64,000 bases of DNA from an uncultured Enterobacterales bacterium (GTDB taxonomy: Bacteria; Myxococcota_A; UBA796; JAFGLY01): positions 21,746 to 85,745 of the forward strand of contig CAYZVO010000002.1 of assembly GCA_964481655.1 (NCBI GenBank). Direction: 5' to 3'. Positions 9,996 through 38,920 of the stretch are shown here, piece after piece; position 1 is the first letter of the stretch, and the number at the start of each line of letters is the position of its first letter. The notes under the pieces are model-generated. The model saw only the letters and a program-made list of their open reading frames with translations. It had not been told where the DNA came from and searched no databases. The position numbers and the translations under genes were made by a program.

Positions 9996-11624
9996 CTACT
10001 CGTCCACGACCCGATAGCGGAGCAGCCCTTCCCAGGTGCCCACCACCAGCCAGTGGCCGTCGGGGCTGGCGGCGATGGACTCCGACAGGCGCGCCGGGCC
10101 GCCCAGGCCGCCCAGCTCCTGGCCGTCCAGATCGATCACCAGCGGGCCGCGGTGGGTGGTGACCAGGAGCCGGTCGGCGCCCACCGCCGCCACGGCCAGG
10201 CCGATGCCGGGACCCTTGGCGCGCTCTCGTCCCTTGTCGTCGAGGATCACGGTGCCGCCGTCGGCCAGCGCGATGTGCCCGCCGGGGAGCCAGGCCGCGT
10301 CGAGGGCCAGGTCCGGGTAGGGTCCCAGGCGCCGCTCGGCGCCAGAGCTGGCGTCCAGGGTCGCGATCCGTTCGTAGCCCCACAGCAGCAGCAGCTCGTC
10401 ACCGCTGGGCGCGGAGGCCAGCAGGGTGACCTGGTCGAGCATGTCGCCATCATGCCCGGCGCTGCGGCGCTTGACCCCGCGGGAGGCGTCGAAGACCCAC
10501 AGGCCCTGTCGGGCGCCGACCGCGAACCAGCGGCCGTCGGCGGTGAACGCGCAGTGGTGCACGGACCAGCGGGTGTCCTCACCGAGGATGGCCCGCGGTT
10601 CGCCGTCGAGGGCCCACAGCTGGTAGGCGCCGCCGTCGGTGTCCAGGCCGACGGAACCCCAGACCACCCCCAGCCGGGAGCCGTCGGGGGCGACGCAGAT
10701 CTCGTCGATCTCGCGTCCCTGGCGGTGTCCTCCAAGCTCGACACGGCCGCGCTCGAGGCCGTCGTCGAGCCCGAACCAGACGAGGACGTCATCTTCGGCG
10801 GCGAAGAGGGTGTCGCCGGCGATGGCCAGGGCCTCGTTGGGGGCCTCGATGGGATCGCCGTGGGCGGCTACCCGATCCCAGGTCGGCCAGGGCTCGGGTG
10901 GGGGAGGGGGCTCGTAGCTGGCGATGGTGCCGCCGCCTCCGCCGCTCCGCATCCCACCGCCGCCGGTCGCGAGCCCCGCGTCGGGGCTGTTCAGGGCGAT
11001 CACGTCTTCGAAGGGGTCTTCGTAGCCCATCAGCTCGTCGCTGAACCCGCCGTAGGCCGCGGTGGACCCTGCGATGGCCTGCAGCAGCCCTGACTCGGCG
11101 ATGATGGCGTCCGACCGTGCGGTGAGGGCGGAGCCCTGCTCGAGCTTCAGGGTCAGCGCGCCGGCCATCAGGCAGCGGTCGATCCCATGGAACACCAGGT
11201 GCTGGTCCGCCCGCTGTTCGACCTGCAGGCGCGTCGCGCCGCAGCGGGCGCTCAGGGGGCCCTCGACCCCGGTGACCGGGGCGGTGCTGGTGCACTCGAT
11301 GTTGGCCTCGAGGCTCCAGCAGTCCCGATCTGCGGTGGCGTCGAGGCGGCAGTCGACATCGGGCCTCGCGGTGCACGAGGACACGCTGAATCCTCCGCCG
11401 AGCCCACCCACGGGCCACTGCAGCTGGTGCAGCCCAGCCTTGTCGAGCTCGAGGGCCATCCAGCCCTCGCCGTCGCCGCCCGCCAGGGCCACCTCCCGGG
11501 CGTCGCCCAGGGCCAGCTCGATGGTCTGCTGGGCGTAGGCGCCGTCGTTGGTCTTCACAGCGTCGATCAGGGCGGGCTCGCGGGCCGGGGCCGCGGCGAC
11601 CAGCAGCGCGAGCGCCAGCATCAC
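9996..11624 (-). CDS. Secreted protein with C-terminal WD40/YVTN-like beta-propeller
   Basis: Signal peptide, Gly-rich linker, repeated blades (ICVAPDGSRL, CAFTADGRWF, LASAPSGDEL, IAASPDGHWL). GTGA overlap with the MMPL stop. Confidence 0.75.
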   Translation of the reverse strand: MMLALALLVAAAPAREPALIDAVKTNDGAYAQQTIELALGDAREVALAGGDGEGWMALELDKAGLHQLQWPVGGLGGGFSVSSCTARPDVDCRLDATADRDCWSLEANIECTSTAPVTGVEGPLSARCGATRLQVEQRADQHLVFHGIDRCLMAGALTLKLEQGSALTARSDAIIAESGLLQAIAGSTAAYGGFSDELMGYEDPFEDVIALNSPDAGLATGGGGMRSGGGGGTIASYEPPPPPEPWPTWDRVAAHGDPIEAPNEALAIAGDTLFAAEDDVLVWFGLDDGLERGRVELGGHRQGREIDEICVAPDGSRLGVVWGSVGLDTDGGAYQLWALDGEPRAILGEDTRWSVHHCAFTADGRWFAVGARQGLWVFDASRGVKRRSAGHDGDMLDQVTLLASAPSGDELLLLWGYERIATLDASSGAERRLGPYPDLALDAAWLPGGHIALADGGTVILDDKGRERAKGPGIGLAVAAVGADRLLVTTHRGPLVIDLDGQELGGLGGPARLSESIAASPDGHWLVVGTWEGLLRYRVVDE

Positions 11625-13882
11625 ACGGCCCGGATCTTGGGCTTGAACAGCACGATCATGGCCGGGAGCATCAGCAGGTCGCCCACCAGGGCGCAGACCA
11701 TGGCCAGGGACATGAGCATGCCGAACCAGGACACAGAGCGGATCTGGGCCAGGCCCAGCACCAGGAAGCCGATGGAGAGCACCACGGTGGTGGACATCAG
11801 CGCGCGCCCCACGCCGTGGATGGCGGCCTCGACGGCCTTGGTGTGATCCCCCAGGCGCCCCATCTCGTAGCGGAAGCGGTACAGGAACTGGGTGGTGTCA
11901 TCGACGATCAAGCCCAGCATGATGGCCGAGACGGTCACCGTGGCCACGTCGAGGCGGATGCCCACCAGGCCCATGACGCCGAGGATGATGATGACCGGCA
12001 CCAGGTTGGCCGGCACGGCCAGGGCCGACAGCCGCAGGGAGCGGAAGAGCAGGGCCAGCATCACGAAGATGACCAGGAAGGCCAGGGCGAAGCTCGACAC
12101 CTGCGACGCCACGACCTCTTCCATGATCACCACGTACAGCGGCAGGTAGCCGCCGGGGGTGATGGTGGCGCCGTCGGGCAGCTCGGCCACCTCGAGCAGG
12201 TCGTCGAGGATGAGGCCGAAGGCCTTGGCGGAGACCATGGGGATGCCCGCGGTGACCCGCAGGGAGTCCTCGTCGGCGGAGACCAGGCTCGACAGGTCGC
12301 TGTCCGGATCGCTCTCGTACAGCAGCAGGGCCTGCTCGAGGGCCGAGGGATCCTCGGGCACCACGAAGCTCTCGGGCTCACCGTCGGAGAGCACCTGGTT
12401 GAGCTTGCGCACCGTGTCCGCGGCGGAGCGGGTCCAGTCGACGTCGGGGTGCTCCTCCATCGCGTCCTGCCAGCGAGCCACGGCGCCCAGCACGGCGGGG
12501 TCGCGCAGGGCGCCGTCGGAGGTGACCACCAGCTCGAGTGGCGTGTAGTTGCCGAAGCTGGCCTCGATGGCCTCCGAGTCCTGGCGCACGTGGTGGTGGG
12601 ACTTCAGGTAGTCGATGCTGTAGGTGTCCACCTCGAGCTGGGTGATGCCCAGGGCGCCGGTGAGGATCAGCACCAGGGCGCCCACCAGTACGGCGGCGGG
12701 CTTCTGGGTGGCCAGCGTGGCCATGCCCGAGACCATCCACATCAGCGGCTTGGGGGGCTCCGGCGCCGGGTCCATGCGCTTCCACAGCAGGCCCACGGCG
12801 CAGCCGATCAGGGCGGCGAGGAAGGCCCCCAGCACGCCGATGGCGGCGAACACGCCCAGGTCTCGCACCACCGGCATGCTCGCGGTCGCCAGCGCGGCGA
12901 AGCCCGCCGCGGTGGTCAGGGAGTTCATGAAGCAGGGCCAGAACATGAAGGCGATCGCGGCCCGCGCCCGCTCCCAGCGGGTGCCGCCGGGGGGCTGCTC
13001 GACGGATCGGTTCAGGAAGTGGATGCAGTCGCTGACCCCGATGATGAGCATCAGGGTGGGCAGCACCATGGTGACCATGTTGATGTCGTGGCCGGTGGCC
13101 CCGTACAGGCCCATCAGCCAGACGGCGGCCAGGCCCACCACCAGCAGGGTGAGCACCACCGGTCCGACCCGGCGGAAGAGCACCAGCAGCAGGCCCACGA
13201 TCACCAGGTAGCTGGCGGCGATGAAGATCTGGGAGTCCACGGTGCTGGCCTGGTTGAGCGCCGCGTAGACCACGCCCATGCCGGCGTAGTCGGGGTCCTC
13301 GCCGCTGGCCTCGATCTGCGCGCGCAGGTCGGCCAGGATGGCGTCGCGCTTGGCGTCGATGTCCCCCATTGACTCCATCCAGGCCAGCACCAGGGCGGTG
13401 TCGCCGCTGGCGTTGACCAGGGTGCCTACGAGCAGGGGGTCGTCGAGCACGGACTGGGCGAAGTCGGGGCTGATGGGAGGGGCGTACAGGGGGGCGACCT
13501 CGAGCCAGTCCTCGCCCGATCGGATCTGCTCGATGGTGGCCAGGGACAGCACCCGCTCGATGCCCTCGACGCCCTCGGCGATCTCGCCGATGGCCTTCAT
13601 CCGGGCGAGCCCGTCTTCGTCGAGGATGCCGCCCGGCTGGTGCAGGGACATCACCACGACCTCGTCGTTGCCGAAGGTCTCCTGGAAGGCGTCGTAGGCC
13701 TCGAGGGCCGGGTCGCCCTCGACGAACCAGATGTCCAGGGCGTTGTCCACGCCGAGCTTGGACAGCCCGAGCATGGACACGGCGGACAGCAGGCAGACCA
13801 GGCCGACCATCAGCCAGCGCAGGCGCAGCAGGCGGTCGATGAAGCCTTCGGTGGCGTTGGCGGGGGGGGAGTGGTCGGTCAT
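11621..13882 (-). CDS. MMPL/RND family lipid exporter
   Basis: Two-fold repeat of TM plus periplasmic domain plus 5 TM. Conserved GVSDCIH and GLIVDDTTQ motifs. Confidence 0.9.
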   Translation of the reverse strand: MTDHSPPANATEGFIDRLLRLRWLMVGLVCLLSAVSMLGLSKLGVDNALDIWFVEGDPALEAYDAFQETFGNDEVVVMSLHQPGGILDEDGLARMKAIGEIAEGVEGIERVLSLATIEQIRSGEDWLEVAPLYAPPISPDFAQSVLDDPLLVGTLVNASGDTALVLAWMESMGDIDAKRDAILADLRAQIEASGEDPDYAGMGVVYAALNQASTVDSQIFIAASYLVIVGLLLVLFRRVGPVVLTLLVVGLAAVWLMGLYGATGHDINMVTMVLPTLMLIIGVSDCIHFLNRSVEQPPGGTRWERARAAIAFMFWPCFMNSLTTAAGFAALATASMPVVRDLGVFAAIGVLGAFLAALIGCAVGLLWKRMDPAPEPPKPLMWMVSGMATLATQKPAAVLVGALVLILTGALGITQLEVDTYSIDYLKSHHHVRQDSEAIEASFGNYTPLELVVTSDGALRDPAVLGAVARWQDAMEEHPDVDWTRSAADTVRKLNQVLSDGEPESFVVPEDPSALEQALLLYESDPDSDLSSLVSADEDSLRVTAGIPMVSAKAFGLILDDLLEVAELPDGATITPGGYLPLYVVIMEEVVASQVSSFALAFLVIFVMLALLFRSLRLSALAVPANLVPVIIILGVMGLVGIRLDVATVTVSAIMLGLIVDDTTQFLYRFRYEMGRLGDHTKAVEAAIHGVGRALMSTTVVLSIGFLVLGLAQIRSVSWFGMLMSLAMVCALVGDLLMLPAMIVLFKPKIRAV

Positions 13883-14964
13883 CGCCGGGTCTCCAGCACG
13901 AATGCGCCGTAGAAGGGAACGCGGTCCTGGGCGAGCAGGGTGGCGGAGCGCTCGGGGTGGCGCTCGACTCGATCCGCGAGGGAGGCGGGGCAGCTGCGGG
14001 GCACGAACAGGTTCCAGTAGGCGAACCGGGCGCCAGGCGCCGACGCCTCGATCATGGCGCGGTAGAGCTGCTGCCAGACGTCGGTCGGCAGGTACTCACC
14101 GATGTTGCTCAGGTTGAACGCGGTGTAGTGGCCCGCGGGGCAGTCGGGCAGGTGGTCCTCGAGGCTGGCCTGGACCCACTCGATGCGATCGGCGGCGTCG
14201 CGCAGCTTCGCGTGGCCGCGCTTGGTGATGTAGGGGTGGGCGTGCTCGATGGAGCGCCACGCGCCCTCGAGGATCCACTGCACGTAGGGGTTGTCGTGCA
14301 GGGACTGGCCGCCGAGCACGTCGTCGCAGCGGGCCAGGATGCGCTCTGCCACGCTGCCCTCGACCTGGGCGAACTGCTCGGGGCTGCGCCCCAGCCTGGC
14401 CATGACCCGGCGGCTGAAGAAGACCCGGAACAGACCGCGCCAGCGCCGGGTGGACCAGTGGCGGTCGTGCCAGGCCCGCTGCTCGGCGGGGCTCTTGGCG
14501 TCGATGAGGGCTTCGATGGTCGATCTGCGGTGAATGAGGGGCAGCACCCGGCGGGTGAAGGTGCCCAGGTAGCGCTCGAACTTACCGGCGCTCAGGAGGC
14601 CGTCGCTGATGAGCTGGGGGTTGGCGTTCCACCAGGCCCGGGCCATGCGCGAGAGGCGGTGCTCGATCTCCCCGTACGCGTCCAGGGGGTCCCCCGGGCG
14701 CAGGCCGAGCAGCACCTGGAAGCGGCCGTAGGGCAGCCAGCCACCCGCCAGCTTCAGCTCGCACAGGGCGATCTGCTGGGGGGACAGGTCGATGCCCACC
14801 ACGCGGGCACCGCGCAGCGCCAGGGCGAGGCTGTTGCAGCCGGCGGACGCCACGCTCAGCACGCGATCATCGGGGCCCACATCCAGCGCGTCGACCAGCA
14901 CCCGCCAGTCCTCCCAGCACTGGGCATAGGAGAGGCGGGAGGCCAGGGGAGCGGCGGCGGTCAT
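13879..14964 (-). CDS. DUF3419/BtaA-like SAM-dependent 3-amino-3-carboxypropyl transferase family protein
   Basis: YAQCWED, VLSVASAGCN, DLSPQQIALCELK, GKFERY and FNLSNIGEY motifs. ATG 14964 overlaps the upstream TGA. Confidence 0.85.
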   Translation of the reverse strand: MTAAAPLASRLSYAQCWEDWRVLVDALDVGPDDRVLSVASAGCNSLALALRGARVVGIDLSPQQIALCELKLAGGWLPYGRFQVLLGLRPGDPLDAYGEIEHRLSRMARAWWNANPQLISDGLLSAGKFERYLGTFTRRVLPLIHRRSTIEALIDAKSPAEQRAWHDRHWSTRRWRGLFRVFFSRRVMARLGRSPEQFAQVEGSVAERILARCDDVLGGQSLHDNPYVQWILEGAWRSIEHAHPYITKRGHAKLRDAADRIEWVQASLEDHLPDCPAGHYTAFNLSNIGEYLPTDVWQQLYRAMIEASAPGARFAYWNLFVPRSCPASLADRVERHPERSATLLAQDRVPFYGAFVLETRR

Positions 14965-17525
14965 GCGTCGTCGTCCGCGGTGATGGCCGGCTTGGCGCGG
15001 TCCTGCAGCGGCTTGACCGTGCCGGCGCCGCCGTCCATGCGGACCCGGTCTCCGTCCTTGATCAAGGCGGTGAGCCCGCGCAGCCCGACGACGGTGGGGA
15101 TGCCCATCTCCCGGGCGACCACGGCGGAGTGGGACAGGGGGCTGCCCCGCTCGACGAGCAGGCCCGAGATGGACGGGAACAGCGGCACCCAGCCGGGGTC
15201 GGTGCGCGGGGTGACCAGGATGTCGCCGTCGAGCCGGGCGCCGCCGGTGGGGGCCACCAGCGACACCACCGGACCCTCGACCACGCCGGGGTAGCAGGGT
15301 GTGCCCCGCATGACGCCGTCGTCGTCCAGCGCCGCGGGGGCGCGCCTGGCCGTGAAGCGGTTGTGGCGGTGGACGGGGCCCCAGGTGTGGAAGCGCTCGG
15401 GGGGACCGGGCAGGGCGCGGTAGGCGTCGAACTCGACCTTGCGCAGGGCCACCAGGCCCTTCCAGGAGGTGCAGGGCGCGTTGCCCTCGACCCAACCGAA
15501 CAGCTCCGGCAGCTCGAGGTAGAAGACGTCGCGGGGGTCGTCGAGGGCGCCGCTGGCGGCCATGTGCCCGCCGATGGCCCGGAAGATGTCGCGCACCAGG
15601 CCGAAGATGCGGGTGCGCAGGAAGCGGAGATCCTCGCGGGTGGCCACGGTCTCGCGGGCGCGGCCGAGGATCCAGAGGAACAAGGCCCGGCGCCAGCCCT
15701 GCAGCTGCTGCCGCGCCTGCTGTTCGGCCAGCTCGCGGCGGCGGCGCTCGCCGGCGCCGAACTGGGCGGGATCCATGGGCTCGCCGCGCAGGTAGTTGCG
15801 CAGGGAGGAGATCACGAACTCGGGCTGCTCCCGCAGGGGGATGGTCTCGAGCTTCAGCTCGTCGATGCAGCGATCGCCGAAGCGCTCCATCCAGGCGTCG
15901 AGCCAGCGGGCGAAGGTGGGATCGCGCCTGGCGCCCTCGAGGACCTCGAGATCGGACGCGCTGGAGTCGAACAGCTCCATGGCCCAGGGGGCGGCCCGCA
16001 GCCGGGCGGCGCGCTCGAGCAGGGCCCTGGTGGGAGCGGTGGACTCGAGCCCACCCTGGCCGGCCAGCAGGGCGTTGGCCATGGCGGCGCCTCGAGACTC
16101 GTCGCCGTCGCAGAGCAGGGTGGCGCACTGCTTGCGCAGGGCCGAGTGGAAGATCATGCAGAAGAAGTCGTTGACCAGCGGCGGGGTCCAGCGCATCAGC
16201 AGCTTGCGCTGCAGATCGCCGTAGATGGCGATGAGCTCGTCCGGCGGGAGGGTGTCCAGCTCGCGCTTGCGGTGGCTGCCCACGGCGTCTTCGAACTCCC
16301 GCTGGAAGCGGCGGGTGTCCCGGCGCAGGAACAGCAGCCGCCAGACCAGGGTGACCATCAGCCAGACCATGCGCGGCTTGTGCACCAGGTTGCGCTGCCA
16401 GATGGAGGCGGGGGCCTCGGCGTCCTCGTCGGCGGCGACCTCGGAGACCCCCATCATCTGCTGCATGGCGACCCGGTTGTACTGGTAGGCGGGCAGCAGG
16501 GTCAGGATCCGGAACCAGGCGTTGAGGTTGTAGTAGACCCGGCCCTGGATGAGCCCGATGAGCCGCTCGAAGATGTCGTTGTTGGCGTCGACGCTGGCCT
16601 GGGACACGCCCATCACCCGACAGAACAGTCGGTAGACGGTGTTGTAGGCGCCCCGGGCGAAGCTGTAGGTGAGGGGGGTGGTGACCCCGCTGTAGGACTC
16701 GACGATGTTCGAGTTGTCCCACAGCAGCTTGCGGCCGAAGGGCACCGGGGTGGTGATGGGGCGGGTCTGCACCAGCCACATCTGGTCGGCGTCGCGGGTG
16801 AACTCGACGTCCTGGGGGCCGCCGCCGATCTGCTCGAGCTGCCGACCCCAGGCCACCAGCTGGCAGACCTCGGTGTCGGAGAGCACGGGCTGATCCTGCT
16901 TGGCCTTGGGCACCGGGCGCTCGGCGGGTTCTTCGCCCACCAGCTTGACGTGGACCTGCTTGTCCTGGATCTCGGGCTCGATGGCGCCGCTGGGCCCCAC
17001 GCGGAAGGCGTCGCAGTCGGCGGAGCCCTGGACCACGCCTTCGCCCAGGCCCCAGGCGGCGGAGATCAGGGTGTGCTCGGGCATGTCGGGGTCGCGGGTG
17101 AACATCACGCCCGAGGCCTCGCCGCGGATCATGCGCTGCACCACCACGGCCACGGGCCCCGGCTCGATGCCGTGGGTGGCGCAGTAGGCCCGGACCCGCT
17201 CGGAGTCGCCGGACGCGCGGCAGGTGGTGATGGCGGCCTCGATGCGGGTGATGGCCTTGACCCCCAGCACGCTCTCGAGCTGACCGGCGAAGCTGTGCTG
17301 GGCGCCGTCCTCGGCCAGGGCCGAGGATCGCACGGCGTAGGGGCCGGGGCCGAGCTGCTCGAGGGCGGCCTTGAGCGCCTTGCGGTCGAGCTCGAGATCC
17401 GCGGGGATCACGAAGAAGGGCGGCACCGGCAGACCGTTGCGGACCAGCAAGCCCAGCCCTCCGGCCTTGCCCCCCACCCGATCGGCGCCTTCGCCCGCTG
17501 CCACCTGCTTGTCGAACAGAACCAT
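14961..17525 (-). CDS. PEP/pyruvate-binding-domain phosphotransferase with rifamycin phosphotransferase (RPH)/PigC-like architecture
   Basis: N-terminal ATP-grasp (VGGKA, YAVRSSA...EDG...SFAGQ, GLGEGVVQG, QTRPIT), long central helical domain, C-terminal phospho-His swivel (TDPGWVPLF, GSPLSHSAVVAREMGIP). Start re-called at ATG 17525 with GAGG RBS. Confidence 0.85.
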   Translation of the reverse strand: MVLFDKQVAAGEGADRVGGKAGGLGLLVRNGLPVPPFFVIPADLELDRKALKAALEQLGPGPYAVRSSALAEDGAQHSFAGQLESVLGVKAITRIEAAITTCRASGDSERVRAYCATHGIEPGPVAVVVQRMIRGEASGVMFTRDPDMPEHTLISAAWGLGEGVVQGSADCDAFRVGPSGAIEPEIQDKQVHVKLVGEEPAERPVPKAKQDQPVLSDTEVCQLVAWGRQLEQIGGGPQDVEFTRDADQMWLVQTRPITTPVPFGRKLLWDNSNIVESYSGVTTPLTYSFARGAYNTVYRLFCRVMGVSQASVDANNDIFERLIGLIQGRVYYNLNAWFRILTLLPAYQYNRVAMQQMMGVSEVAADEDAEAPASIWQRNLVHKPRMVWLMVTLVWRLLFLRRDTRRFQREFEDAVGSHRKRELDTLPPDELIAIYGDLQRKLLMRWTPPLVNDFFCMIFHSALRKQCATLLCDGDESRGAAMANALLAGQGGLESTAPTRALLERAARLRAAPWAMELFDSSASDLEVLEGARRDPTFARWLDAWMERFGDRCIDELKLETIPLREQPEFVISSLRNYLRGEPMDPAQFGAGERRRRELAEQQARQQLQGWRRALFLWILGRARETVATREDLRFLRTRIFGLVRDIFRAIGGHMAASGALDDPRDVFYLELPELFGWVEGNAPCTSWKGLVALRKVEFDAYRALPGPPERFHTWGPVHRHNRFTARRAPAALDDDGVMRGTPCYPGVVEGPVVSLVAPTGGARLDGDILVTPRTDPGWVPLFPSISGLLVERGSPLSHSAVVAREMGIPTVVGLRGLTALIKDGDRVRMDGGAGTVKPLQDRAKPAITADDDA

Positions 17526-17619
17526 TGCAACCTCGATCCGCCCTGCTCGCGTGGGCAGCGGCGAAGGGGTAGCCCTATCCCGAAACCACGGTGATCTCCT
17601 GTGTTCAACCTCGCTCCGG

Positions 17620-17934
17620 TTCACCACGGAGAACGCGGAGGACACGGAGGCTGCCGCTCGGCGGGTTGGGGTGGTTGGAGATTGGCGTCGAGAAGGGCGC
17701 GGTGGTCCCTGTGGCCGAGTCTGCGAGCTGCCGCTCCTTTGGTGCGATGAACGTGGTCGCGGGAGAGAATCCCGGTGCGCGTGTTGGTCGCGTCGCTTCT
17801 GGTCAGGGTGTCGCGCCGACGGAGCGGCAGCGCATCCCAGACCTGCGACCAGCGCCGCTCCCCCTCTGCGCCTGCCTCCACCCCCATCTCGAACCGAGCG
17901 GAGCCTCCGCGTTCTCCGCGATCTCCCTGTGGGT
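17620..17934. repeat. ~315-bp imperfect inverted repeat (MITE/REPIN-like) in a divergent intergenic region
   Basis: The outer arm GGAGAACGCGGAGGACACGGAGG matches the reverse complement of CCTCCGCGTTCTCCGCGATCTCC at 20/23. Inner matched blocks: CGCTCGG (17655)/CCGAGCG (17894) and GCTGCCGCTCC (17727)/GGAGCGGCAGC (17821). Confidence 0.7.
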
Positions 17935-17970
17935 TTCTACGGCGGCCACCTTTGCAGTACCATCGGAGCG

Positions 17971-18564
17971 ATGCTGTCCCTCCTGCTCGCGTTGACCTGC
18001 CTGGCCGAGGTGCCGCCCACCTTCGAGGCGCTGCACGAGGAGGGCGGGTGCGCCTACGCGCGCAGCGCGCCGCAGGCCGATGGGTTCCCGGTTCTTCGGG
18101 CGGAGTGCCGCTGGCCGGACGTCCCGGCCGTGGCGGTCCACGCGCTGCTGGGCGACTGGGGGCGCCACGAGGCCATCTGGTCCATGGTGGCCAGCTCCGT
18201 GGTCGTCGAGGACCGTGAGGCGGACGCCCTTGTGGTGCATGTGCACACCGCGCCCTTGATGACCGACCGTGAGATCCTGCTGCGCATGTGGGCCGAGGAC
18301 GTCGATGGTGGGCGGATCTACCGCTGGGCCCGGGCGTACCCCCAGCCAGCGCCGGCCGAAGGGCGCGTGGGGGTCGAGCGCGACGACGGCATGTACGCCA
18401 TCACCGCCGACGGCCAGGGGGTCCACTTGATCTCCACCCTGCACTACGACCCGGGGGGCGTCATCCCCACGTCCCTGGTGGCTTGGTTCCAGGTGCTCGG
18501 AATGCCGCGCTTCCTGGACGAGTTGAAGCTCGCGGCGCTGTCGGTGGATGACCCCGCCGATTGA
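17971..18564 (+). CDS. Secreted START/SRPBCC (helix-grip) lipid-binding-like protein
   Basis: Signal peptide. PLMTDREILLRMW, HLISTLHYDPGGVIPTSLVAW and a terminal helix are typical of START folds. Confidence 0.7.
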   Translation: MLSLLLALTCLAEVPPTFEALHEEGGCAYARSAPQADGFPVLRAECRWPDVPAVAVHALLGDWGRHEAIWSMVASSVVVEDREADALVVHVHTAPLMTDREILLRMWAEDVDGGRIYRWARAYPQPAPAEGRVGVERDDGMYAITADGQGVHLISTLHYDPGGVIPTSLVAWFQVLGMPRFLDELKLAALSVDDPAD

Positions 18565-18595
18565 CCAACGCCCTGGAAACATGGAAGATCCCGCC

Positions 18596-19324
18596 ATGCT
18601 CACGCTCTCGACCTCCGCCCTCCTCCTGTTCGCCTCCACCTCGTTCGCCGCCACCGGCGCCGAGTGGCTCGCCCAGGTCGACGCCGCGGCGTCCCCGGCC
18701 GACGACACCCACGTGGTGATGCAGGTGGCCATGAAGGACGCCAAGGGCCGCGAGGTGAGCCGGACCCTCGAGATCTGGCAGAAGGGTGGCGACCGGCGCA
18801 TGGTGCGCCTCACCGACCCGCCCCGCCTGGCCGGAGTCGGGATGCTCGTGGGCGCGGACGACGTGGTCCACCTGTACCTGCCCTCCTACGACCGCACCCG
18901 TCGCATCATCGGCGATCAGCGCGGCGACGCCTTCATGGGCACCGACATCGCCATGGAGGACCTGGCGCGCACCAGCTTCGCCGACGAGTACACCGCCGAG
19001 GTGGTGAGCGAGGGCGAGGTGCTGGTGGAGCTGATGCTCACGCCCAAGGACCCCAAGGCCCACAGCCACGCGCGCTCGCGCCTGAAGCTGCGCAGCGCGG
19101 ATCAGCTCTGGACCTCCCTCGAGCACCTCGACGCCGAGGGCGCGGTCATTCGCCGCGTCGTCCTGTCCGACTTCCGAGAGGTGGACGGCTACCAGTTCGC
19201 CCACACCATGGCTGTCGAAGACATGGAGCGGGAGCGCACCACCACCGCCACCGCCTCCGAGGTGGCGTTCGACCGCGGTTTGGACGACGAGCTGTTCACG
19301 GTTACCAGCCTTTCACGACCCTGA
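18596..19324 (+). CDS. Outer membrane lipoprotein-sorting protein (LolA-like)
   Basis: Signal peptide, VRLTDPPRLAGVGML, GDAFMGTDIAMEDL and GLDDELFT are characteristic of the LolA-like family found with MMPL transporters. Confidence 0.85.
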   Translation: MLTLSTSALLLFASTSFAATGAEWLAQVDAAASPADDTHVVMQVAMKDAKGREVSRTLEIWQKGGDRRMVRLTDPPRLAGVGMLVGADDVVHLYLPSYDRTRRIIGDQRGDAFMGTDIAMEDLARTSFADEYTAEVVSEGEVLVELMLTPKDPKAHSHARSRLKLRSADQLWTSLEHLDAEGAVIRRVVLSDFREVDGYQFAHTMAVEDMERERTTTATASEVAFDRGLDDELFTVTSLSRP

Positions 19325-19683
19325 CCCCCAACGACTGGGCCACCACCACCGAGCTGCCCTCCTGGGCCGACCTGCCGGCCTCCTACGAGCTGGCCCTGCC
19401 CGCGCCCTTCCTGGCCATGGACGTCACCGTCGAGGACGGCGGCGAGGCCCTGATGGTCCTCTCCCCCACCGCCCAGCCCGACAACGTGGCCCTGGACGAG
19501 GACAACTTCCCCAACTGCATGGTGTCGATCACCATCTCGGCGGACCTCTCCATCACCGGCGCGGACACCATCACCGGCTCCGCCACGCTCGAGACGGAAG
19601 GCTTCGAGGCCGACCCGGACAACTGCCCGGTGGTCACCTCCGATCCCTGCGAGATCACCCTGGACATCACCGCGGCCCGCTAG
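19321..19683 (+). CDS. Acidic ~120-aa ORF lacking a canonical start (CTG-initiated or 5'-truncated remnant)
   Basis: Strong GC3 coding pattern from ~19318 to TAG 19683. The only start at the boundary is a CTG overlapping the upstream TGA (CTGA). Confidence 0.5.
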   Translation: MTPNDWATTTELPSWADLPASYELALPAPFLAMDVTVEDGGEALMVLSPTAQPDNVALDEDNFPNCMVSITISADLSITGADTITGSATLETEGFEADPDNCPVVTSDPCEITLDITAAR

Positions 19684-19696
19684 GGCGCCGCACATC

Positions 19697-21091
19697 TTGA
19701 TCGCCTCCACGATCCTCGCCGCCCTGATCGCGCCCGCGGTCGGGGCGGCCGACGTCGACGTGGGCGGTCACGTGGGCAGCCACCTGCGGCTGGGGCTGCA
19801 GGACTGCGGTGATGGGCCCTGGGACTGCCCGCTGCTCGACTACGGCGACACGGCGGTGGTGGGTGGTTGGGCCCGGGCGAAGCTGAACCCGCGGGCCCAC
19901 GCGGCCCTGGCGGTGGACCTGCGCCTGCACCACGCGGTGCAGGCCGAGATCATGGACGAGACCACCGATCCCATGGCCGTGCTGGGGGCCTCCTGGCGGG
20001 TGCAGCGGGCGGTGGTGGACCTGCGCGAGGTGGGCCTGAAGGCCCTGGACCTCGAGCTCGGCGTCCAGAAGGTGCCCTGGGGCACCGCCGATGGGCTCCA
20101 CGTCGTGGACCGCGTCAACCCCTGGGATCTCGAGAACCCCCTGGCGCTGGACGCCCGCCTGCCCGTACCGGTCGCTCGCGCGCTGTTGCACCGTGGGCCG
20201 GTGCAGCTCGAGGGAGTCTGGGTGCCCATCGCCTGGCCCGCGGTGCTGCCGCGACAAGGCGTGGAGCTGCTTCCCGGCGCCGAGGACATGGTGGGCGAAG
20301 GCTCCGACTTCGGCGACACCTTCGATGGGGTCTCGGTCAACGAGATCGAGGCCCGCGTGGAGCCCCCGGATCGGACCCTCGACAACATGGGCGGGGGTGC
20401 CCGCCTCAGCTGGGCCGCGGCCCGGGGCGACCTCGCCGCCAGCTACTGGCACGGCCGCGACAGCCTGCCCCAGGCCGACGGGGAGATGATCCTCACCGGC
20501 TTCCAGACCTCCGACTCCCGGGTCGATGTGGCCGTGCCCCTGCGCTACCCCGTGGTGGACGTGGTGGGCCTCGAGGCCCGCGGCGAGCTGTTCGCGGACA
20601 TCGGCGGCTGGGTCGAGGCGGCGGTGGTCTTCCCGGAGCGGACCGTGGCCAAGGCCAGCCAGACCCAGCTCGAGGCCCTCGAGCGCCTGGGCACCATCGA
20701 CGAGGTGCCCGACCCCGTCCCGAACGTCGTCACCCAGGATGGCGAGCCCTACCCCACCTGGGTGCTGGGCATCGACCGCGGCTTCGGCCGGGTCTACCTC
20801 AACCTGCAGTGGCTGCACGGCTTCCCCACCGAGCGGCAGCGTGAGGATCTGCAGGACTACGCCAGCGTCGCGGCGCGCGTCACCCTCGCCGACACCGTGA
20901 TCCTGTCCCTGCGGGCCCTGGGCGATGTCCGCGGGGCCGGCGTGCTGGGCGTGGCGGATCTCGAGCTTCTGCACGCGGACGCCGCCAGCATCGTCATCGG
21001 GGGCGCCTGGGTCCAGGCGGTGGAGGGCAGCTCCCTGTACAGCTTCCGGGGGGCGAGCCAGGCCCACGGCGGGGTGACGCTGGAGTTCTGA
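19697..21091 (+). CDS. DUF1302-like outer membrane beta-barrel protein
   Basis: TTG start, signal peptide, LGVQKVPWGTADGLHVVDRVNP motif, terminal aromatic residue (LEF). Typical partner of MMPL and LolA-like genes. Confidence 0.75.
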   Translation: MIASTILAALIAPAVGAADVDVGGHVGSHLRLGLQDCGDGPWDCPLLDYGDTAVVGGWARAKLNPRAHAALAVDLRLHHAVQAEIMDETTDPMAVLGASWRVQRAVVDLREVGLKALDLELGVQKVPWGTADGLHVVDRVNPWDLENPLALDARLPVPVARALLHRGPVQLEGVWVPIAWPAVLPRQGVELLPGAEDMVGEGSDFGDTFDGVSVNEIEARVEPPDRTLDNMGGGARLSWAAARGDLAASYWHGRDSLPQADGEMILTGFQTSDSRVDVAVPLRYPVVDVVGLEARGELFADIGGWVEAAVVFPERTVAKASQTQLEALERLGTIDEVPDPVPNVVTQDGEPYPTWVLGIDRGFGRVYLNLQWLHGFPTERQREDLQDYASVAARVTLADTVILSLRALGDVRGAGVLGVADLELLHADAASIVIGGAWVQAVEGSSLYSFRGASQAHGGVTLEF

Positions 21092-21150: not shown

Positions 21151-22320
21151 GTGAGCCACGACCGCTTCTACGACGACCTGCCTCCCCGACGCTCCTTCCT
21201 GGAGGCGCTCGAGGACCGTGGGTTCCGGGCGGTGCCCGATAACTGGACGGTGTTCGTCGCCGACATCCGCGGCTCCCGTGAGGCCATGGCCGCGGGGCGC
21301 TACAAGGACGTCAACACCGTCGGTGTGGCGGTGATCGCGGCCGCGCGCAACGCGGTGCCCGGGCAGGAGCTGCCCTTCGTCTTCGGTGGTGATGGCGCCA
21401 CGCTGCTGGCGCCGCCGTCGGCCTGCGAAGCGGTGGAACTCGCCCTGGACGCCGTGCGCACCCTCGCGCGGGAGCGCTTCGGGCTCGAGCTGCGGGTCGG
21501 CGCGGTGCTGGTCGCCGAGCTGTACGCCGACGGCCTGGCGGTCGAGGTGGCCAAGCACGAGCTGGCGGCCGGTCGCTGCGTCGCGGTGTTCCGCGGCGGC
21601 GGGGTGAGCGCCGCGGACGCCCGCGTGAAGCGGCACTACGACCGCTACGAGCTCCCCCGGGAAGAACGCGCGGAGCCCGACCTGTCAGGCCTGTCCTGCC
21701 GCTGGCAGCCGGTCCCGTCCGCGCAGGGTTGCATCCTGACGCTGCTGGTCCACGCGCGGGTGGATGACGCCACCGCCGTGTACCGCGGGTTCCTCGGCTG
21801 GCTGGATGACAGCCTGCCCGGCGGGCTCGCTGCCGCCAACCCCGTGGGGATCGATGGCCTGGCCTACCGCGACCTCCGCACCAACCTGGCGGATGAGCGT
21901 CGCTACCACCTGCGCGGGTGGAGCGTGTCGTTTCTGTGGAGGGCGCTCGAGATGTTCATCGCGGGCCTGATCTTCCGTTGGCGGATCCCGACCCCCTTCG
22001 TCGCGACCGCCCGCTACGAGGCCGCCATCGCCGGCCACTCCGACTATCGCAAGCTCGACGACATCCTGCGCATGGTGATCGACTGCAGCCCCGATCAGGC
22101 CGAGGCCATCCAGAGCTGGCTCGATCGCGGGGTGGAGGCCGGGGCGTTGCACTACGGGCTCCACCGGTCGGACGCGGCGTTGATGACCTGCCTGGTCGGC
22201 TCGACCCGGGACGGGGGCCACATCCACTTCATCGATGGCGGGGACGGTGGTTACGCGGTGGCCGCGACGGCCCTGGGGCAGCAGCGCGACGCGGCGCGGA
22301 CGCCCACCCCGGGGGGCTGA
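21151..22320 (+). CDS. DUF3095 family protein
   Basis: FYDDLP, VPDNWTVFVADIRGS...GRYKDVN, FVFGGDGAT, DLSGLSCRW, DYRKLDDILRMVID and HIHFIDGGDGGYA. Confidence 0.85.
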   Translation: MSHDRFYDDLPPRRSFLEALEDRGFRAVPDNWTVFVADIRGSREAMAAGRYKDVNTVGVAVIAAARNAVPGQELPFVFGGDGATLLAPPSACEAVELALDAVRTLARERFGLELRVGAVLVAELYADGLAVEVAKHELAAGRCVAVFRGGGVSAADARVKRHYDRYELPREERAEPDLSGLSCRWQPVPSAQGCILTLLVHARVDDATAVYRGFLGWLDDSLPGGLAAANPVGIDGLAYRDLRTNLADERRYHLRGWSVSFLWRALEMFIAGLIFRWRIPTPFVATARYEAAIAGHSDYRKLDDILRMVIDCSPDQAEAIQSWLDRGVEAGALHYGLHRSDAALMTCLVGSTRDGGHIHFIDGGDGGYAVAATALGQQRDAARTPTPGG

Positions 22321-23144: not shown

Positions 23145-24104
23145 CTAGGGCGCGGTTTCGCCGTCGGCCTCGCTGTCGAGCTCCGGATCGAGGCTGGTCC
23201 CGTCATCGGGATCGGCCGTGTTCGCGTCGTCCGCCGTGATCTCTTCGCTGGCTTCGGCCTCCTGGGCCGCGGCGAGCTCATCGGCGCTGGGCCAGGTGCC
23301 GGACGGGTAGACGATCGCGCCGCTCAGCCAGTCGAACTCGGACAGCGGAGTGCTGGTGATGACGTCGCGGCTCGACGCGCTGGCCAGCCAATGGACCTCG
23401 TAGACCTGTCCGTTGACCAACACCGCCATGTGCTTGCCACCGCGGGCGGCGAGGATGGCGAAGGGGAGCTGCTCCAGGGCCTCGATGCCGGTGGTGTCCT
23501 GCTCGGTGTCGCTGTTCCACGACGGGCGGTAGTTGAGCACCGCGTGCTCGGGGTCGACGTCGATCCCGTAGTAGCTGCCCTTGGACGCGAGGTATGCGGA
23601 GTAGGGGTGCTCGTCGTCGGCGTCGGACGGGTGGGCCACGTCCGGGTTCCAGTAGGCACCATCCCAGGCGAAGCGCTCCTGCATCAGCTGCATCAGGTCG
23701 ATGCCCTTGAGGGCACCGCCGCCGTTCGCGGCCGCGTCGCTGATGAGGTCCCGGATCTCGTCTCCCAGGTCCGCGGCGTCGAACGCCGCCTTCAGCACCG
23801 TCACCAGATAGGTCGTGCAGTCGTGGGCCTCGATCTCGGACCAGGAATCCAGGGGAGAGCGGTAGGCGCCGTAGTACAGGCCCAGCCCGGTGGCGTCGAT
23901 GGCCGCATCGTGCGCTTCGTCCATGCGCTTGGCGGCCTCGGCCGCGGCGTGGCCGATGAAGGCCTGCAGGCCGTCGCTGAACGAGTCGATGGCCTCACGC
24001 AGGTCCATCACGCACTCGGGCACGCCGGTGCACAGGTCCTGGGCCTGGGCACTGAGCACGCCGAAGCTGGAGACGAGCGCGAGAATCAAAGTGCGCTTCT
24101 TCAT
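23145..24104 (-). CDS. Secreted protein with putative NlpC/P60 (papain-like) Cys-His catalytic motifs
   Basis: Signal peptide MKKRTLILALV, GGAG RBS, HDCTTYLVTVL, GGKHMAVLV and YEVHW. Confidence 0.6.
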   Translation of the reverse strand: MKKRTLILALVSSFGVLSAQAQDLCTGVPECVMDLREAIDSFSDGLQAFIGHAAAEAAKRMDEAHDAAIDATGLGLYYGAYRSPLDSWSEIEAHDCTTYLVTVLKAAFDAADLGDEIRDLISDAAANGGGALKGIDLMQLMQERFAWDGAYWNPDVAHPSDADDEHPYSAYLASKGSYYGIDVDPEHAVLNYRPSWNSDTEQDTTGIEALEQLPFAILAARGGKHMAVLVNGQVYEVHWLASASSRDVITSTPLSEFDWLSGAIVYPSGTWPSADELAAAQEAEASEEITADDANTADPDDGTSLDPELDSEADGETAP

Positions 24105-24173
24105 AATTCTCCTAATACCCTAGGAGTCGAGCCCGTGATAGCACGCAGGAAGTCGATTGTCCTGGAAGATCGT

Positions 24174-24692
24174 ATGAACATGCTGCTGATCGCTCTCGCG
24201 CTGCCCGTCGTCGCCCAGACCGCGGAGCAGGCTCCCCTCCAGCGGGTCCTCGAGGTCGAGGCCGGTGGCGTCACCGCGGTGTTCCAGGGTGAACCCGTCC
24301 CCCCGGGGATCGAACCCACTTTGGGAATCCGACGCCTGGTGTTCCGCTTCGCCGACGGCAGCGAGTTCCCCTTCGCTCCCCGCGGCACCCTGTACTTCAG
24401 CGACTGGTTCACCGACATCTTCAGCCCGGACGGCCGCTTCGTGCTGCTGCCCCAGGACCACTACGGCCCCTTCCACGTCGTCGAGGTCACGGCCCTGGAC
24501 GCCTACCTGGGCGGCGGCCCCCCCTTCGCGGTGGTCGGCCAGAATCCCGGTGTGGATGCGGGCGCCTGGGTCCACGCCGATGCCCGCTGGGTGGGCGACA
24601 CCACCGTGGTCTACGAGGCCGGCCTCGAGGACCTGCGCTCCTTCACCTTCGAGCTGCCGGTGGAGCAGAGCGCGGAGGGCGCTGGCGGTTAG
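24174..24692 (+). CDS. Hypothetical secreted protein
   Basis: Signal peptide and one propeller-blade-like segment (DIFSPDGRFVLL). It is the C-terminal part of track ORF 23391-24692. Confidence 0.6.
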   Translation: MNMLLIALALPVVAQTAEQAPLQRVLEVEAGGVTAVFQGEPVPPGIEPTLGIRRLVFRFADGSEFPFAPRGTLYFSDWFTDIFSPDGRFVLLPQDHYGPFHVVEVTALDAYLGGGPPFAVVGQNPGVDAGAWVHADARWVGDTTVVYEAGLEDLRSFTFELPVEQSAEGAGG

Positions 24693-26472: not shown

Positions 26473-27210
26473 ATGCGCGCCCTGCCCACCATCCTGCTCG
26501 CCGTCATCGCCCTGTCGGGCTGGGGCCTGGCTTCATGGTGGGCGGACAGCCCCACGCTGCCTGGGCCGTGGGCCGTGGCGGCCGCGGGCTGGGTGCTGGC
26601 CCAGGAGGGGCCGCTGCTGGCCGACATCGGCGCCAGCCTCGGCCGCGTGGTCGTCGGGTTCACCGGCGCGGCGATCGCCGGGGTGCTGCTCGGCGCGGCC
26701 TCCGCCGCCATCGGGCGCTGGGGCCGGGCCCTGCGGCGCCTGCTCGAGCTGCTGCGGCCCATCCCCCCCATCGCGTGGGTGCCCCTGGCGATCCTGTGGT
26801 TCGGGCTGGGGGACCCCTCGGCTTGGTTCATCGTCTTCCTGGGGGCCTTCTTCCCCATCTACATCCAGGTCACCCTGGCCCTGGCCGACTGCCCGCCCCG
26901 CTACCTCGAGCTGGCCCGCAGCCTCGGTGCGCGCTCGGGGCTGGTGCTGTGGAAGGTGCGCCTGCCCGCGGCCATGCCCCAGGTGGTGGCCGGGCTGCGC
27001 ACGGGCCTGGGCCTGGCCTGGACCAGCCTGATCGCCGCCGAGCTGGTGGGTGCCCAGAGCGGCCTGGGCTACCGCATCCAGATGCACCGCCTGGTGCTCG
27101 AGACCGAGGGCGTGATGGTGGGCATGCTCTGCATCGGCCTGCTGGGGGCCGCCATGGCCCTGCTGGCCAGAGGGCTCGAGCGCTGGCTCGTGCCGTGGAG
27201 CGCGTCGTGA
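26473..27210 (+). CDS. ABC transporter permease, nitrate/sulfonate/taurine family
   Basis: LRPIPPIAWVPLAILWFG, EAA-like loop and WTSLIAAELVGAQSGLG. Confidence 0.9.
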   Translation: MRALPTILLAVIALSGWGLASWWADSPTLPGPWAVAAAGWVLAQEGPLLADIGASLGRVVVGFTGAAIAGVLLGAASAAIGRWGRALRRLLELLRPIPPIAWVPLAILWFGLGDPSAWFIVFLGAFFPIYIQVTLALADCPPRYLELARSLGARSGLVLWKVRLPAAMPQVVAGLRTGLGLAWTSLIAAELVGAQSGLGYRIQMHRLVLETEGVMVGMLCIGLLGAAMALLARGLERWLVPWSAS

Positions 27211-34205: not shown

Positions 34206-34217
34206 TAGGTGGTGGGC

Positions 34218-36613: not shown

Positions 36614-38920
<2,307 letters not shown>

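Follow-up and report, generated by a model that had tools for sequence, protein, structure and literature searches.

Part of a widespread gene cassette, probably for a membrane amphiphile and coupled to a dedicated export route, in a Myxococcota-like metagenomic contig

The DNA analysed here is a stretch of 64,000 nucleotides from contig CAYZVO010000002.1 of the assembly GCA_964481655.1 (hereafter the window), which carries between positions 9996 and 21091 two divergent operons that a preliminary description had proposed to be a lipid biosynthesis and export system. We show that the two enzymes encoded there, a dikinase resembling rifampin phosphotransferase (RPH) and the prodigiosin ligase PigC, and a DUF3419 transferase dependent on S-adenosylmethionine (SAM), are the obligate core pair of a seven-gene cassette that spans more than ten bacterial phyla. 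The proposed two-enzyme system thus holds as a pair but not as a complete unit, as three further cassette members lie outside it, at 32946–36613. In total, the window holds five of the seven cassette genes, in two blocks 16 kb apart (13.9–17.5 kb and 32.9–36.6 kb). We consider it probable that the window represents half of a widespread cassette for a membrane amphiphile which, in this Myxococcota-like lineage, is coupled to a dedicated route of export across the cell envelope. The amphiphile is most likely an isoprenoid- or acyl-tailed lipid with a SAM-derived, phosphorylated or N-acylated head group.

The cassette emerged from a scan of a GTDB collection with one genome per species using a DUF3419 alignment, in which 583 of the 600 matches listed were confirmed as DUF3419 relatives. 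The locus statistics refer to 80 DUF3419-centred loci (L001–L080) among the matches listed, the full number being at least that, and to a fully flanked subset of 39, each with 8 kb or more of sequence to either side. Open reading frames (ORFs) of the loci come from mechanical calling, and neighbour families from single-linkage clustering. The RPH-like gene is clustered with the DUF3419 gene in 65 of the 80 loci and immediately precedes it, in the same orientation, in 40 of these. Clustering of the ORFs further yielded five conserved neighbour families, encoding an HMG-CoA reductase-like protein (HMGR-like), a UbiA-like protein, a polytopic membrane protein (here called MEMB), a GNAT acyltransferase and an acyl-AMP ligase, and the usual gene order is HMGR-UbiA-RPH-DUF3419-MEMB-GNAT-ligase. 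Across the fully flanked loci, the RPH-like gene was found in 36, UbiA in 35, MEMB in 32, GNAT and the ligase in 31 each and HMGR in 22, and all seven genes were present together in 20. The loci listed carry labels of metagenome-assembled genomes (MAGs) from Acidobacteriota, Planctomycetota, Verrucomicrobiota, Lentisphaerota, Kiritimatiellota, Cyanobacteriota (including Obscuribacteraceae), Bacteroidota, Gemmatimonadota, Deinococcota, Chlamydiota, Pseudomonadota, Myxococcota and others. An exhaustive profile search returned 5008 DUF3419 representatives, 1121 of them below 1e-30.

The cassette HMGR-like protein is a class-I-type HMG-CoA reductase (PF00368, 6e-110). The UbiA-like protein is divergent, with its second Asp-rich motif replaced, and its profile is nearest to digeranylgeranylglyceryl phosphate (DGGGP) synthase (5e-6) and then to chlorophyll synthase (2e-3), which are O-prenylating enzymes using prenyl diphosphates. 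The GNAT member is a two-domain protein and the ligase is of the PRK09274/OleC-like acyl-AMP type. Natural fusions, verified by cassette hidden Markov models (HMMs) and Pfam, join RPH to DUF3419 (P0272 and P0285), HMGR to DUF3419 (P0322) and DUF3419 to GNAT (P0254, P0348 and P0379). By the same verification, DUF3419 is also fused to an MFS protein in P0253 and to a PEMT-type phospholipid methyltransferase in P0397, the latter hinting, by analogy with the role of BtaB for BtaA, at N-methylation of the DUF3419 product. The cultured Brevibacillus laterosporus B9 has a complete cassette at about 464.5–474.7 kb of NZ_CP011076.1, and a further one lies on a 137-kb plasmid of Roseinatronobacter sp. 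S2 (NZ_CP121116.1, at 128.2–136.7 kb and on across the origin), so that the cassette is directly testable. As Brevibacillus is Gram-positive, location in the outer membrane is not an inherent property of the product.

The earlier statement that no characterised pathway has this combination of genes agrees with what we found. NCBIfam holds no equivalog for the DUF3419, MEMB or GNAT proteins of the cassette, and the RefSeq names of the Roseinatronobacter genes are generic ("PEP/pyruvate-binding domain-containing protein", "DUF3419 family protein", "hypothetical protein"). Full-text searches of the open literature likewise brought up no description of the cassette, subscription-only literature being outside their scope. 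The neighbourhoods mentioned in the Lipocone paper (PMC12419801) are different ones, and a DUF3419 gene near the cly cluster is a flanking gene only. That a cassette so widespread and partly fused goes by generic names only suggests a common bacterial metabolite or lipid still to be tied to genes by lipidomics, and a function for it would be the first for the large non-BtaA branch of DUF3419 and for a major branch of RPH/PigC-like dikinases.

The second part of our reading, the coupling to export, is based on gene order in relatives. An orthologue of the window's MMPL transporter gene adjoins the RPH-DUF3419 pair in L001, L002, L003, L005, L008, L016, L017 and L081–L088. Labels for L001, L002, L003 and L005 are Myxococcota or Deltaproteobacteria, and with L008 (Salinivenus), L016 and L017 (gammaproteobacterial MAG) the MMPL-linked loci cover three or more phyla; in L017 the MMPL gene is inserted inside a full cassette. 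A divergent operon of LolA-like, lipoprotein and barrel genes (hereafter the trio) stands beside RPH-DUF3419-MMPL in L081, L084/85, L086, L092 and L093, and synteny is kept at DUF3419 identities to the window of 77% (L081), 65% (L084/85) and 56% (L086). In more distant relatives, the trio is found instead beside a 581-aa lipoprotein gene and the MEMB-GNAT-ligase block (L091, L102, L104 and L120, partly L115 and L123), which provides independent evidence for the link between cassette and export, and L092 has both cassette halves and the export genes within 21 kb. The trio joins the cassette only in this Myxococcota-like lineage, by two independent arrangements, and this synteny supports a functional link there between the enzyme pair and the MMPL, LolA-like and barrel genes. 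The neighbourhood analysis that had been proposed as a check gave a split answer: the enzymes co-occur with MMPL genes in several phyla, but with the trio in this lineage only, and most cassette genomes, including Brevibacillus, lack nearby export genes. Export to the outer membrane is accordingly a lineage-specific add-on. Very distant barrel homologues (23–28% identity) form plain MMPL-LolA-barrel operons, so that the triad is a generic module recruited by this lineage. The Myxococcota variant is in this respect a natural experiment on how hydrophobic molecules pass through the periplasm.

All eight genes that had been described were found as ORFs in 9996–21091, with GC contents at third codon positions of 0.92–0.98 each in a window of 72% GC, and the 4-nt overlaps of the leftward operon were read at the junctions as ATGA (RPH/DUF3419), ATGA (DUF3419/MMPL) and GTGA (MMPL/propeller). 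The coordinates of these and the related features are collected in Table 1. Structures are AlphaFold2 (AF2) predictions and were matched by Foldseek. The contig of L001 (CAZHIK010000380.1) encodes proteins 79–91% identical to those of the window, has 72% GC and bears the label 'uncultured Enterobacterales bacterium'; it is almost certainly a mis-binned or mislabelled member of the window's Myxococcota-like lineage.

Table 1. Features of the two operons and of the second cassette block, with positions counted from the first nucleotide of the window.
Feature	Length	Position	Strand	Basis or remark
Secreted protein, propeller-like C-terminal half	542 aa	9996..11624	-	last gene of leftward operon; third-position GC 0.92
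MMPL/HAE3-type RND inner-membrane transporter	753 aa	11621..13882	-	PF03176 3e-24
DUF3419 SAM-dependent transferase, cassette-type subfamily	361 aa	13879..14964	-	PF11899
RPH/PigC-like dikinase	854 aa	14961..17525	-	ATP-grasp, divergent substrate domain and phospho-His swivel
Divergent intergenic promoter region	445 nt	17526..17970	.	lineage-specific ~300-nt insertion, nested inverted repeats
Predicted secreted START-fold (helix-grip) lipid-binding protein	197 aa	17971..18564	+	AF2 and Foldseek
Periplasmic LolA-like carrier (PF17131, TP_0789-like)	242 aa	18596..19324	+	PF17131 1e-34
5'-truncated acidic lipoprotein remnant	117 aa	19330..19683	+	C-terminal two-thirds of ~180-aa lipoprotein
Outer-membrane beta-barrel, probable divergent DUF1302 branch	464 aa	19697..21091	+	AF2 model, homologues
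Acidic lipoprotein, candidate extra component	581 aa	31135..32880	-	lipobox-like N-terminus, pI 4.05
MEMB polytopic membrane protein	419 aa	32946..34205	+	cassette HMM 1.9e-82
Cassette GNAT acyltransferase	295 aa	34209..35096	+	Acetyltransf_1 3e-6; cassette HMM 3.2e-56
Cassette acyl-AMP/CoA ligase	506 aa	35093..36613	+	AMP-binding 1.7e-42; cassette HMM 1.3e-142

For the dikinase, the earlier RPH-like assignment was borne out by Pfam matches to PPDK_N (9.6e-54) and PEP-utilizers (1.2e-23). The start is probably Met41 of the long ORF. The phospho-His motif GSPLSHSAVVARE at residue 794, which includes His799, is retained in 51 of 53 cassette homologues. More specific identities were rejected. The protein lacks the TIM barrel PF02896 that binds phosphoenolpyruvate (PEP) or pyruvate in the Pfam scan, and on TIGR01418 it reaches 192 of the 740 bits required; PEP synthase or pyruvate, water dikinase is excluded accordingly. 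The closest solved structure is the Listeria rifampin phosphotransferase (5e-55), to which (5FBS and 5HV1) only residues 61–263 and the C-terminal domain align; on the rifampin phosphotransferase model NF041857 the protein reaches 270.5 bits against a cutoff of 999, and with the middle domain unaligned and the gene context different, this identity was also discarded. Scores for the prodigiosin ligases PigC (241 against 1300 bits) and RedH (267 against 1350) are far below their cutoffs, and no prodiginine genes lie near the gene in the window. The top NCBIfam match is the generic PRK06241.2-2, at 758 bits and under its cutoff of 883.

The DUF3419 protein matches PF11899 at 6.3e-60, with residues 9–359 covering profile positions 8–384 of 385, so that of the earlier DUF3419/BtaA-like call the family part stands. 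Across phyla, it is 35–50% identical to other cassette members and 24–28% identical to rhizobial BtaA, and the cassette subfamily has specific motifs of its own, FNLSNIxEY and YWNxxVPR. A search of PDB sequences returned weak methyltransferase and repeat matches only.

The MMPL protein fits PF03176 in two stretches (86 bits, cutoff 20.5), with a sterol-sensing domain match at 1e-7, and its topology comprises 11–12 transmembrane segments in a 1+5/1+5 pattern with two large loops. Its best NCBIfam match is TIGR00921 (HAE3), at 199.7 bits and under the cutoff of 351.9. Identity with HpnN (73.5 against 751.85 bits and 44.1 against 1100 bits) and with BstA (a weak match, the HpnN/BstA models scoring 44–74 bits against cutoffs of 750–1400) was rejected on scores and context. 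The gene is translationally coupled to DUF3419, and by analogy with related pumps we infer that the protein is a predicted exporter of the cassette product. The last gene of the operon had been described as a secreted beta-propeller; an N-terminal hydrophobic signal and about seven blade-like repeats are present, but the WD40 match of 25.2 bits falls below the cutoff of 27, and the PDB sequence search gave nothing useful. The protein is full-length only in L001 (71% identity), reduced to a 67-aa remnant in L092 and absent from L081, L084 and L086.

In the rightward operon, the first gene product has no Pfam match, and the START fold assigned to it earlier is supported by its AF2 model (predicted local distance difference test, pLDDT, 82), for which the top Foldseek match is the Xanthomonas START protein 3QSZ (TM-scores 0.74/0.81, root-mean-square deviation 2.9), followed by PC-TP, STARD10/4/5 and CERT among about 40 START-domain structures. 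The N-terminus resembles a signal peptide. Ten homologues were found; the protein is present in L081 (71%) and L084 (38%) and absent from L086, and like the propeller-like protein it is a variable accessory. The LolA-like call was sound (PF17131, 120.1 bits against a cutoff of 30), with a signal peptide ending in AxA and a start that, judged from relatives, is probably 18596 and not 18548. The protein is 62–78% identical in L081, L084 and L086, and in most homologous loci, generic MMPL-LolA-barrel operons among them, its gene is paired with the barrel gene.

What had been listed as a small acidic ORF is present, although it is in fact a 5'-truncated lipoprotein gene. Its product (pI 4.05) is 56–82% identical to the C-terminal two-thirds of conserved outer-membrane or periplasmic lipoproteins of 181–213 aa in L081, L084 and L086, in which a signal peptide is followed by a lipobox Cys and four further features in the form of conserved Cys residues are shared. 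Missing from the window copy are the N-terminal ~65 aa (~190 nt at the 5' end), so that signal peptide, lipobox and first Cys region are all lost; translation from the earliest ATG, at 19417, would give an 88-aa cytoplasmic fragment. The gene is full-length in L081 and L092, and the truncation (19325–19420) is either a real deletion, making this a pseudogene, or an assembly artefact.

The barrel protein yields an all-beta AF2 model (pLDDT 89.9, predicted template modelling score 0.86), nearest to AlgE at a TM-score of ~0.5. The barrel shape and the homologues are in keeping with the DUF1302-like description, the protein itself having no Pfam match: PF06980 (DUF1302) is precomputed in 8 of 109 homologues from Myxococcota/Deltaproteobacteria MAGs, and 6 of 10 distant homologues score above the DUF1302 gathering threshold. 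A stand-alone operon with a barrel 34% identical to that of the window occurs in L090 (ERZ24794637 NODE_109). Besides the barrel, this operon encodes a LolA-like protein, the small lipoprotein and a 255-aa protein; a carotenoid oxygenase gene of the RPE65 type and a fatty-acid desaturase gene flank it, and there are no cassette genes within 10 kb.

The region between the two operons measures 445 nt, against 77–105 nt at this place in relatives. It contains inverted repeats with 28-nt arms (17625–17652/17902–17929) and, nested within them, 21-nt arms (17727–17747/17811–17831). The ~300-nt insertion resembles nothing in relatives or in the rest of the window, scans of the region for sigma-70 promoters and terminators gave no match, and an Rfam scan of 9000–37500 returned zero RNA families. 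The insertion looks like a MITE-like element (miniature inverted-repeat transposable element) or a long hairpin in a shared promoter region.

The second cassette block encodes MEMB, GNAT and the ligase. MEMB has 12–15 hydrophobic segments and no Pfam match of its own, while members of its family show weak matches to DUF92 (6 of 25) and CTP_transf_1 (2 of 25); judged from this weak similarity, it may be a distant relative of CTP-dependent polyprenol(-phosphate) kinases or cytidylyltransferases. A PDB sequence search with MEMB gave only spurious heliorhodopsin matches. The ligase scores 336.7 bits on PRK09274 and 203.8 bits on the OleC-type model, both under cutoff. Divergent from this operon is the gene for the 581-aa lipoprotein, which has no Pfam, NCBIfam or PDB match and whose homologue adjoins MEMB in L091, L092, L102, L104, L115, L120 and L123. 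A UbiA gene at 29238–30128 was considered as a missing cassette member and rejected: it lies beside COX15/CtaA, is unmatched by the cassette UbiA HMM and is a heme O synthase gene paired with heme A synthase CtaA.

Directly 3' of the barrel gene and on the same strand is a DUF3095 gene (21151–22320, 2.5e-106). The syntenic region of L092 has neither this gene nor the stretches 23145–24692 and 27195–27959, which indicates that in the window additional insertions separate the two halves of the system. Immediately beyond the ligase gene, the window encodes an FG-GAP repeat protein (36614–38920), just before four consecutive same-strand genes at 39102–46670 (965, 551, 469 and 529 aa) with Cys-rich, lipoprotein-like N-termini.

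The RPH-like, DUF3419, GNAT and ligase proteins are predicted to be soluble and MEMB and MMPL polytopic, and the other five carry export signals. In the mechanism that we propose, soluble cytoplasmic enzymes would tailor a substrate bound to the inner membrane. MEMB, acting as CTP-type kinase or cytidylyltransferase, would prepare this substrate together with the UbiA-like O-prenyl/alkyl transferase, which would be encoded elsewhere in this genome. The ligase and GNAT would activate and transfer an acyl group, the RPH-like enzyme would phosphorylate a hydroxyl from ATP through its phospho-histidine, and DUF3419 would carry out a SAM-dependent, BtaA-like transfer of an alkyl (aminocarboxypropyl) group. 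The MMPL pump, driven by the proton motive force, would pull the product from the inner membrane, START-fold and LolA-like carriers would move it through the periplasm, and the lipoprotein and barrel would insert or release it at the outer membrane. A lipid cargo is suggested by the START fold, the LolA-like carrier, the HAE3 pump with its sterol-sensing-type domain, the presence of polytopic MEMB together with a UbiA-like enzyme, and the PEMT fusion, and the export route has precedents in the AmeABCD system of Castellaniella defragrans (PMC6394551) and in a set of Pseudomonas genes (bioRxiv 10.1101/2020.07.04.188060).

As speculation, the seven enzymes can be placed in a linear scheme in which a lipid hydroxyl is aminocarboxypropylated, the resulting amine is N-acylated, the carboxylate is adenylated and reduced, and the alcohol is phosphorylated. 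A bolder form of our reading, which we put forward tentatively and hold to be rather less probable, is that the cassette makes an unrecognised class of bacterial membrane lipid in hundreds of species of more than ten phyla, and that the Myxococcota-like lineage has a five-part lipid conveyor consisting of the MMPL pump, the START-fold carrier, the LolA-like carrier, the lipoprotein and the DUF1302 barrel. One possibility for the head group would then be a SAM-derived aminocarboxypropyl group, N-acylated, reduced and phosphorylated, on an isoprenoid or alkyl anchor.

Several observations weigh against these proposals. The cassette HMMs detected no cassette-type UbiA or HMGR gene within the 64-kb window, so that this lineage may have an incomplete or modified pathway, and the truncated lipoprotein gene together with the promoter-region insertion means that the export route of this particular genome may be impaired. 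All of the cassette chemistry is deduced from family membership: the DUF3419 protein lacks several BtaA-type positions at its 24–28% identity to BtaA, aminocarboxypropyl transfer is putative and methyl transfer is possible in its place. Some of the fusion proteins could be gene-calling artefacts, and most loci are MAG or other metagenomic contigs, some with unreliable taxon labels. MMPL genes occur in only 5 of the 39 fully flanked loci and the trio in none of the 80 listed DUF3419-centred loci, iterative search included, while cassette genes are missing within reach at roughly half of the barrel-family loci whose flanks are usable.

The alternative that fares best, though we judge it unlikely, is that the product is a diffusible secondary metabolite or signal, for example of an N-acyl-homoserine or prenylated type, with the MMPL, LolA-like and barrel proteins secreting it to the medium. 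A GNAT, an acid-activating ligase and a SAM enzyme recall, in our interpretation, acyl-homoserine chemistry, which is that of LuxI-type enzymes. P450 genes accompany the cassette in 5 of the 39 fully flanked loci, the Roseinatronobacter cassette is plasmid-borne (137 kb), one DUF3419 protein is fused to an MFS protein and AmeABCD moves small hydrophobic monoterpenes (PMC6394551). Nevertheless, the core of the cassette includes two polytopic membrane enzymes (UbiA-like and MEMB), a PEMT::DUF3419 fusion exists, START and LolA-like carriers typically take lipid or lipoprotein cargo, and a broad, vertical-looking spread across phyla would be unusual for a specialised metabolite.

Improbable, in our assessment, is a reversed direction of transport, in which the barrel and the LolA-like and START carriers import a hydrophobic alcohol or lipid such as phytol and the RPH-like enzyme and MEMB phosphorylate it for salvage. 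RND/MMPL proteins transport outward, HpnN and AmeD being exporters (PMC6394551), the HMGR-like enzyme and the ligase-GNAT pair point to de novo synthesis, and in most genomes, including a monoderm, the cassette comes without outer-membrane components. These points stand against the weak similarity of MEMB to DUF92 (the VTE6 family) and CTP_transf_1, the closeness of the UbiA-like profile to the prenyl-diphosphate users DGGGP synthase and chlorophyll synthase, and the role of DUF1302/DUF1329 genes in Pseudomonas growth on fatty esters (bioRxiv 10.1101/2020.07.04.188060).

We give similarly little weight to coincidence, that is, to the START/LolA-like/barrel operon being a generic envelope-maintenance system unrelated to the enzymes. 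The trio or a quartet does stand alone in L089, L090, L097–L100 and other loci, and distant homologues occur in generic MMPL-LolA-barrel operons that lack the enzymes, but two conserved arrangements tie the trio to two different halves of the cassette, and MMPL, the usual companion of such a trio, is here translationally coupled to DUF3419. Least probable of all is a detoxification or resistance island, in which RPH-like and methyltransferase-like enzymes inactivate a hydrophobic xenobiotic or antibiotic that the RND protein pumps out: a rifampin phosphotransferase is the closest solved structure, the NCBIfam RPH model does match at 270 bits and AmeABCD-type HAE3 systems give solvent tolerance (PMC6394551), but that score compares with a cutoff of 999, the substrate-binding middle domain is unaligned, the pair sits in and fuses to a biosynthetic-looking cassette of more than ten phyla, and most cassettes have no nearby pump.

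We retain as probable the amphiphile cassette with a recruited export route, and compare its parts with known systems. With RPH, PigC and RedH, the dikinase shares the three-part architecture and the catalytic His motif, whereas its middle domain is unaligned to that of RPH and its context is unrelated to rifamycins or prodiginines. With BtaA, the DUF3419 protein shares the full-length domain, an N-terminal YxQxWED and the SAM-binding GxGxN and DL. In rhizobia, however, btaA is followed by the class I methyltransferase gene btaB, whereas no such partner stands beside the DUF3419 gene of the window, and no methyltransferase is among the conserved neighbour families of the 80 listed loci. On the cassette DUF3419 HMM, rhizobial BtaA scores 76 bits against 455–573 for cassette members, and by these comparisons the window protein is not a BtaA orthologue, so that the BtaA part of the earlier call does not stand. 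A TehB-like methyltransferase gene at 2321–2917 was rejected as a BtaB equivalent, being more than 10 kb off and not conserved with the cluster in L084. Among the rhizobial sequences, a btaA-type DUF3419 gene of Sinorhizobium meliloti Ak57 (L150, CP090106.1, 2462036–2463144) was matched in two pieces or ORFs and is without a coding sequence entry; a frameshifted pseudogene is one explanation, a simple gap in the incomplete PLSDB gene table another, and the record, named pSymB, is 3.7 Mb and thus chromosome-sized.

The hopanoid and sterol transporters HpnN and BstABC are alike in that the gene of an RND/MMPL pump, which has a sterol-sensing-type domain, accompanies those for the synthesis of its putative lipid cargo, but their periplasmic and outer-membrane partners are not those of the present system, and no hopanoid or sterol genes lie near the MMPL gene in the window. 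In plants and cyanobacteria, phytol salvage and prenyl transfer proceed through VTE5, VTE6 and then a UbiA-family transferase. The cassette recalls this in its combination of a DUF92/CTP_transf_1-like polytopic protein with a UbiA-like transferase, an analogy that is weak (E 1e-3 to 5e-6), with no cassette UbiA in the window, and that we take as a lead only.

The closest known transport analogues are AmeABCD and the Pseudomonas set. AmeABCD consists of a DUF1302 outer-membrane protein, a DUF1329 protein of the LolA superfamily, a COG4447 propeller and an HAE3 pump (PMC6394551), and the Pseudomonas set is a group of cofit DUF1302, DUF1329, BNR and RND genes (PP_0765, PP_0766, PP_2018 and PP_2019; bioRxiv 10.1101/2020.07.04.188060). 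Common to these and to the window are an HAE3 RND pump and a LolA-superfamily protein, together with a barrel (in the window probably of the DUF1302 type), a propeller or propeller-like protein and a hydrophobic cargo, which for the window is predicted. The differences lie in the LolA-like protein, which belongs to PF17131 in the window and shares only the superfamily with DUF1329; in the propeller, which is WD40-like and poorly conserved instead of COG4447/BNR; and in the gene order, with the export genes in two divergent operons where the four AmeABCD genes form one cassette. The window further adds START-fold and lipoprotein components, and its export set is tied to a biosynthetic cassette, whereas the comparison systems stand in the setting of a catabolic island. 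In the window, a START-fold and a LolA-like carrier accompany an HAE3 pump and a probable DUF1302-type barrel, a module whose role in Pseudomonas and Castellaniella is debated.

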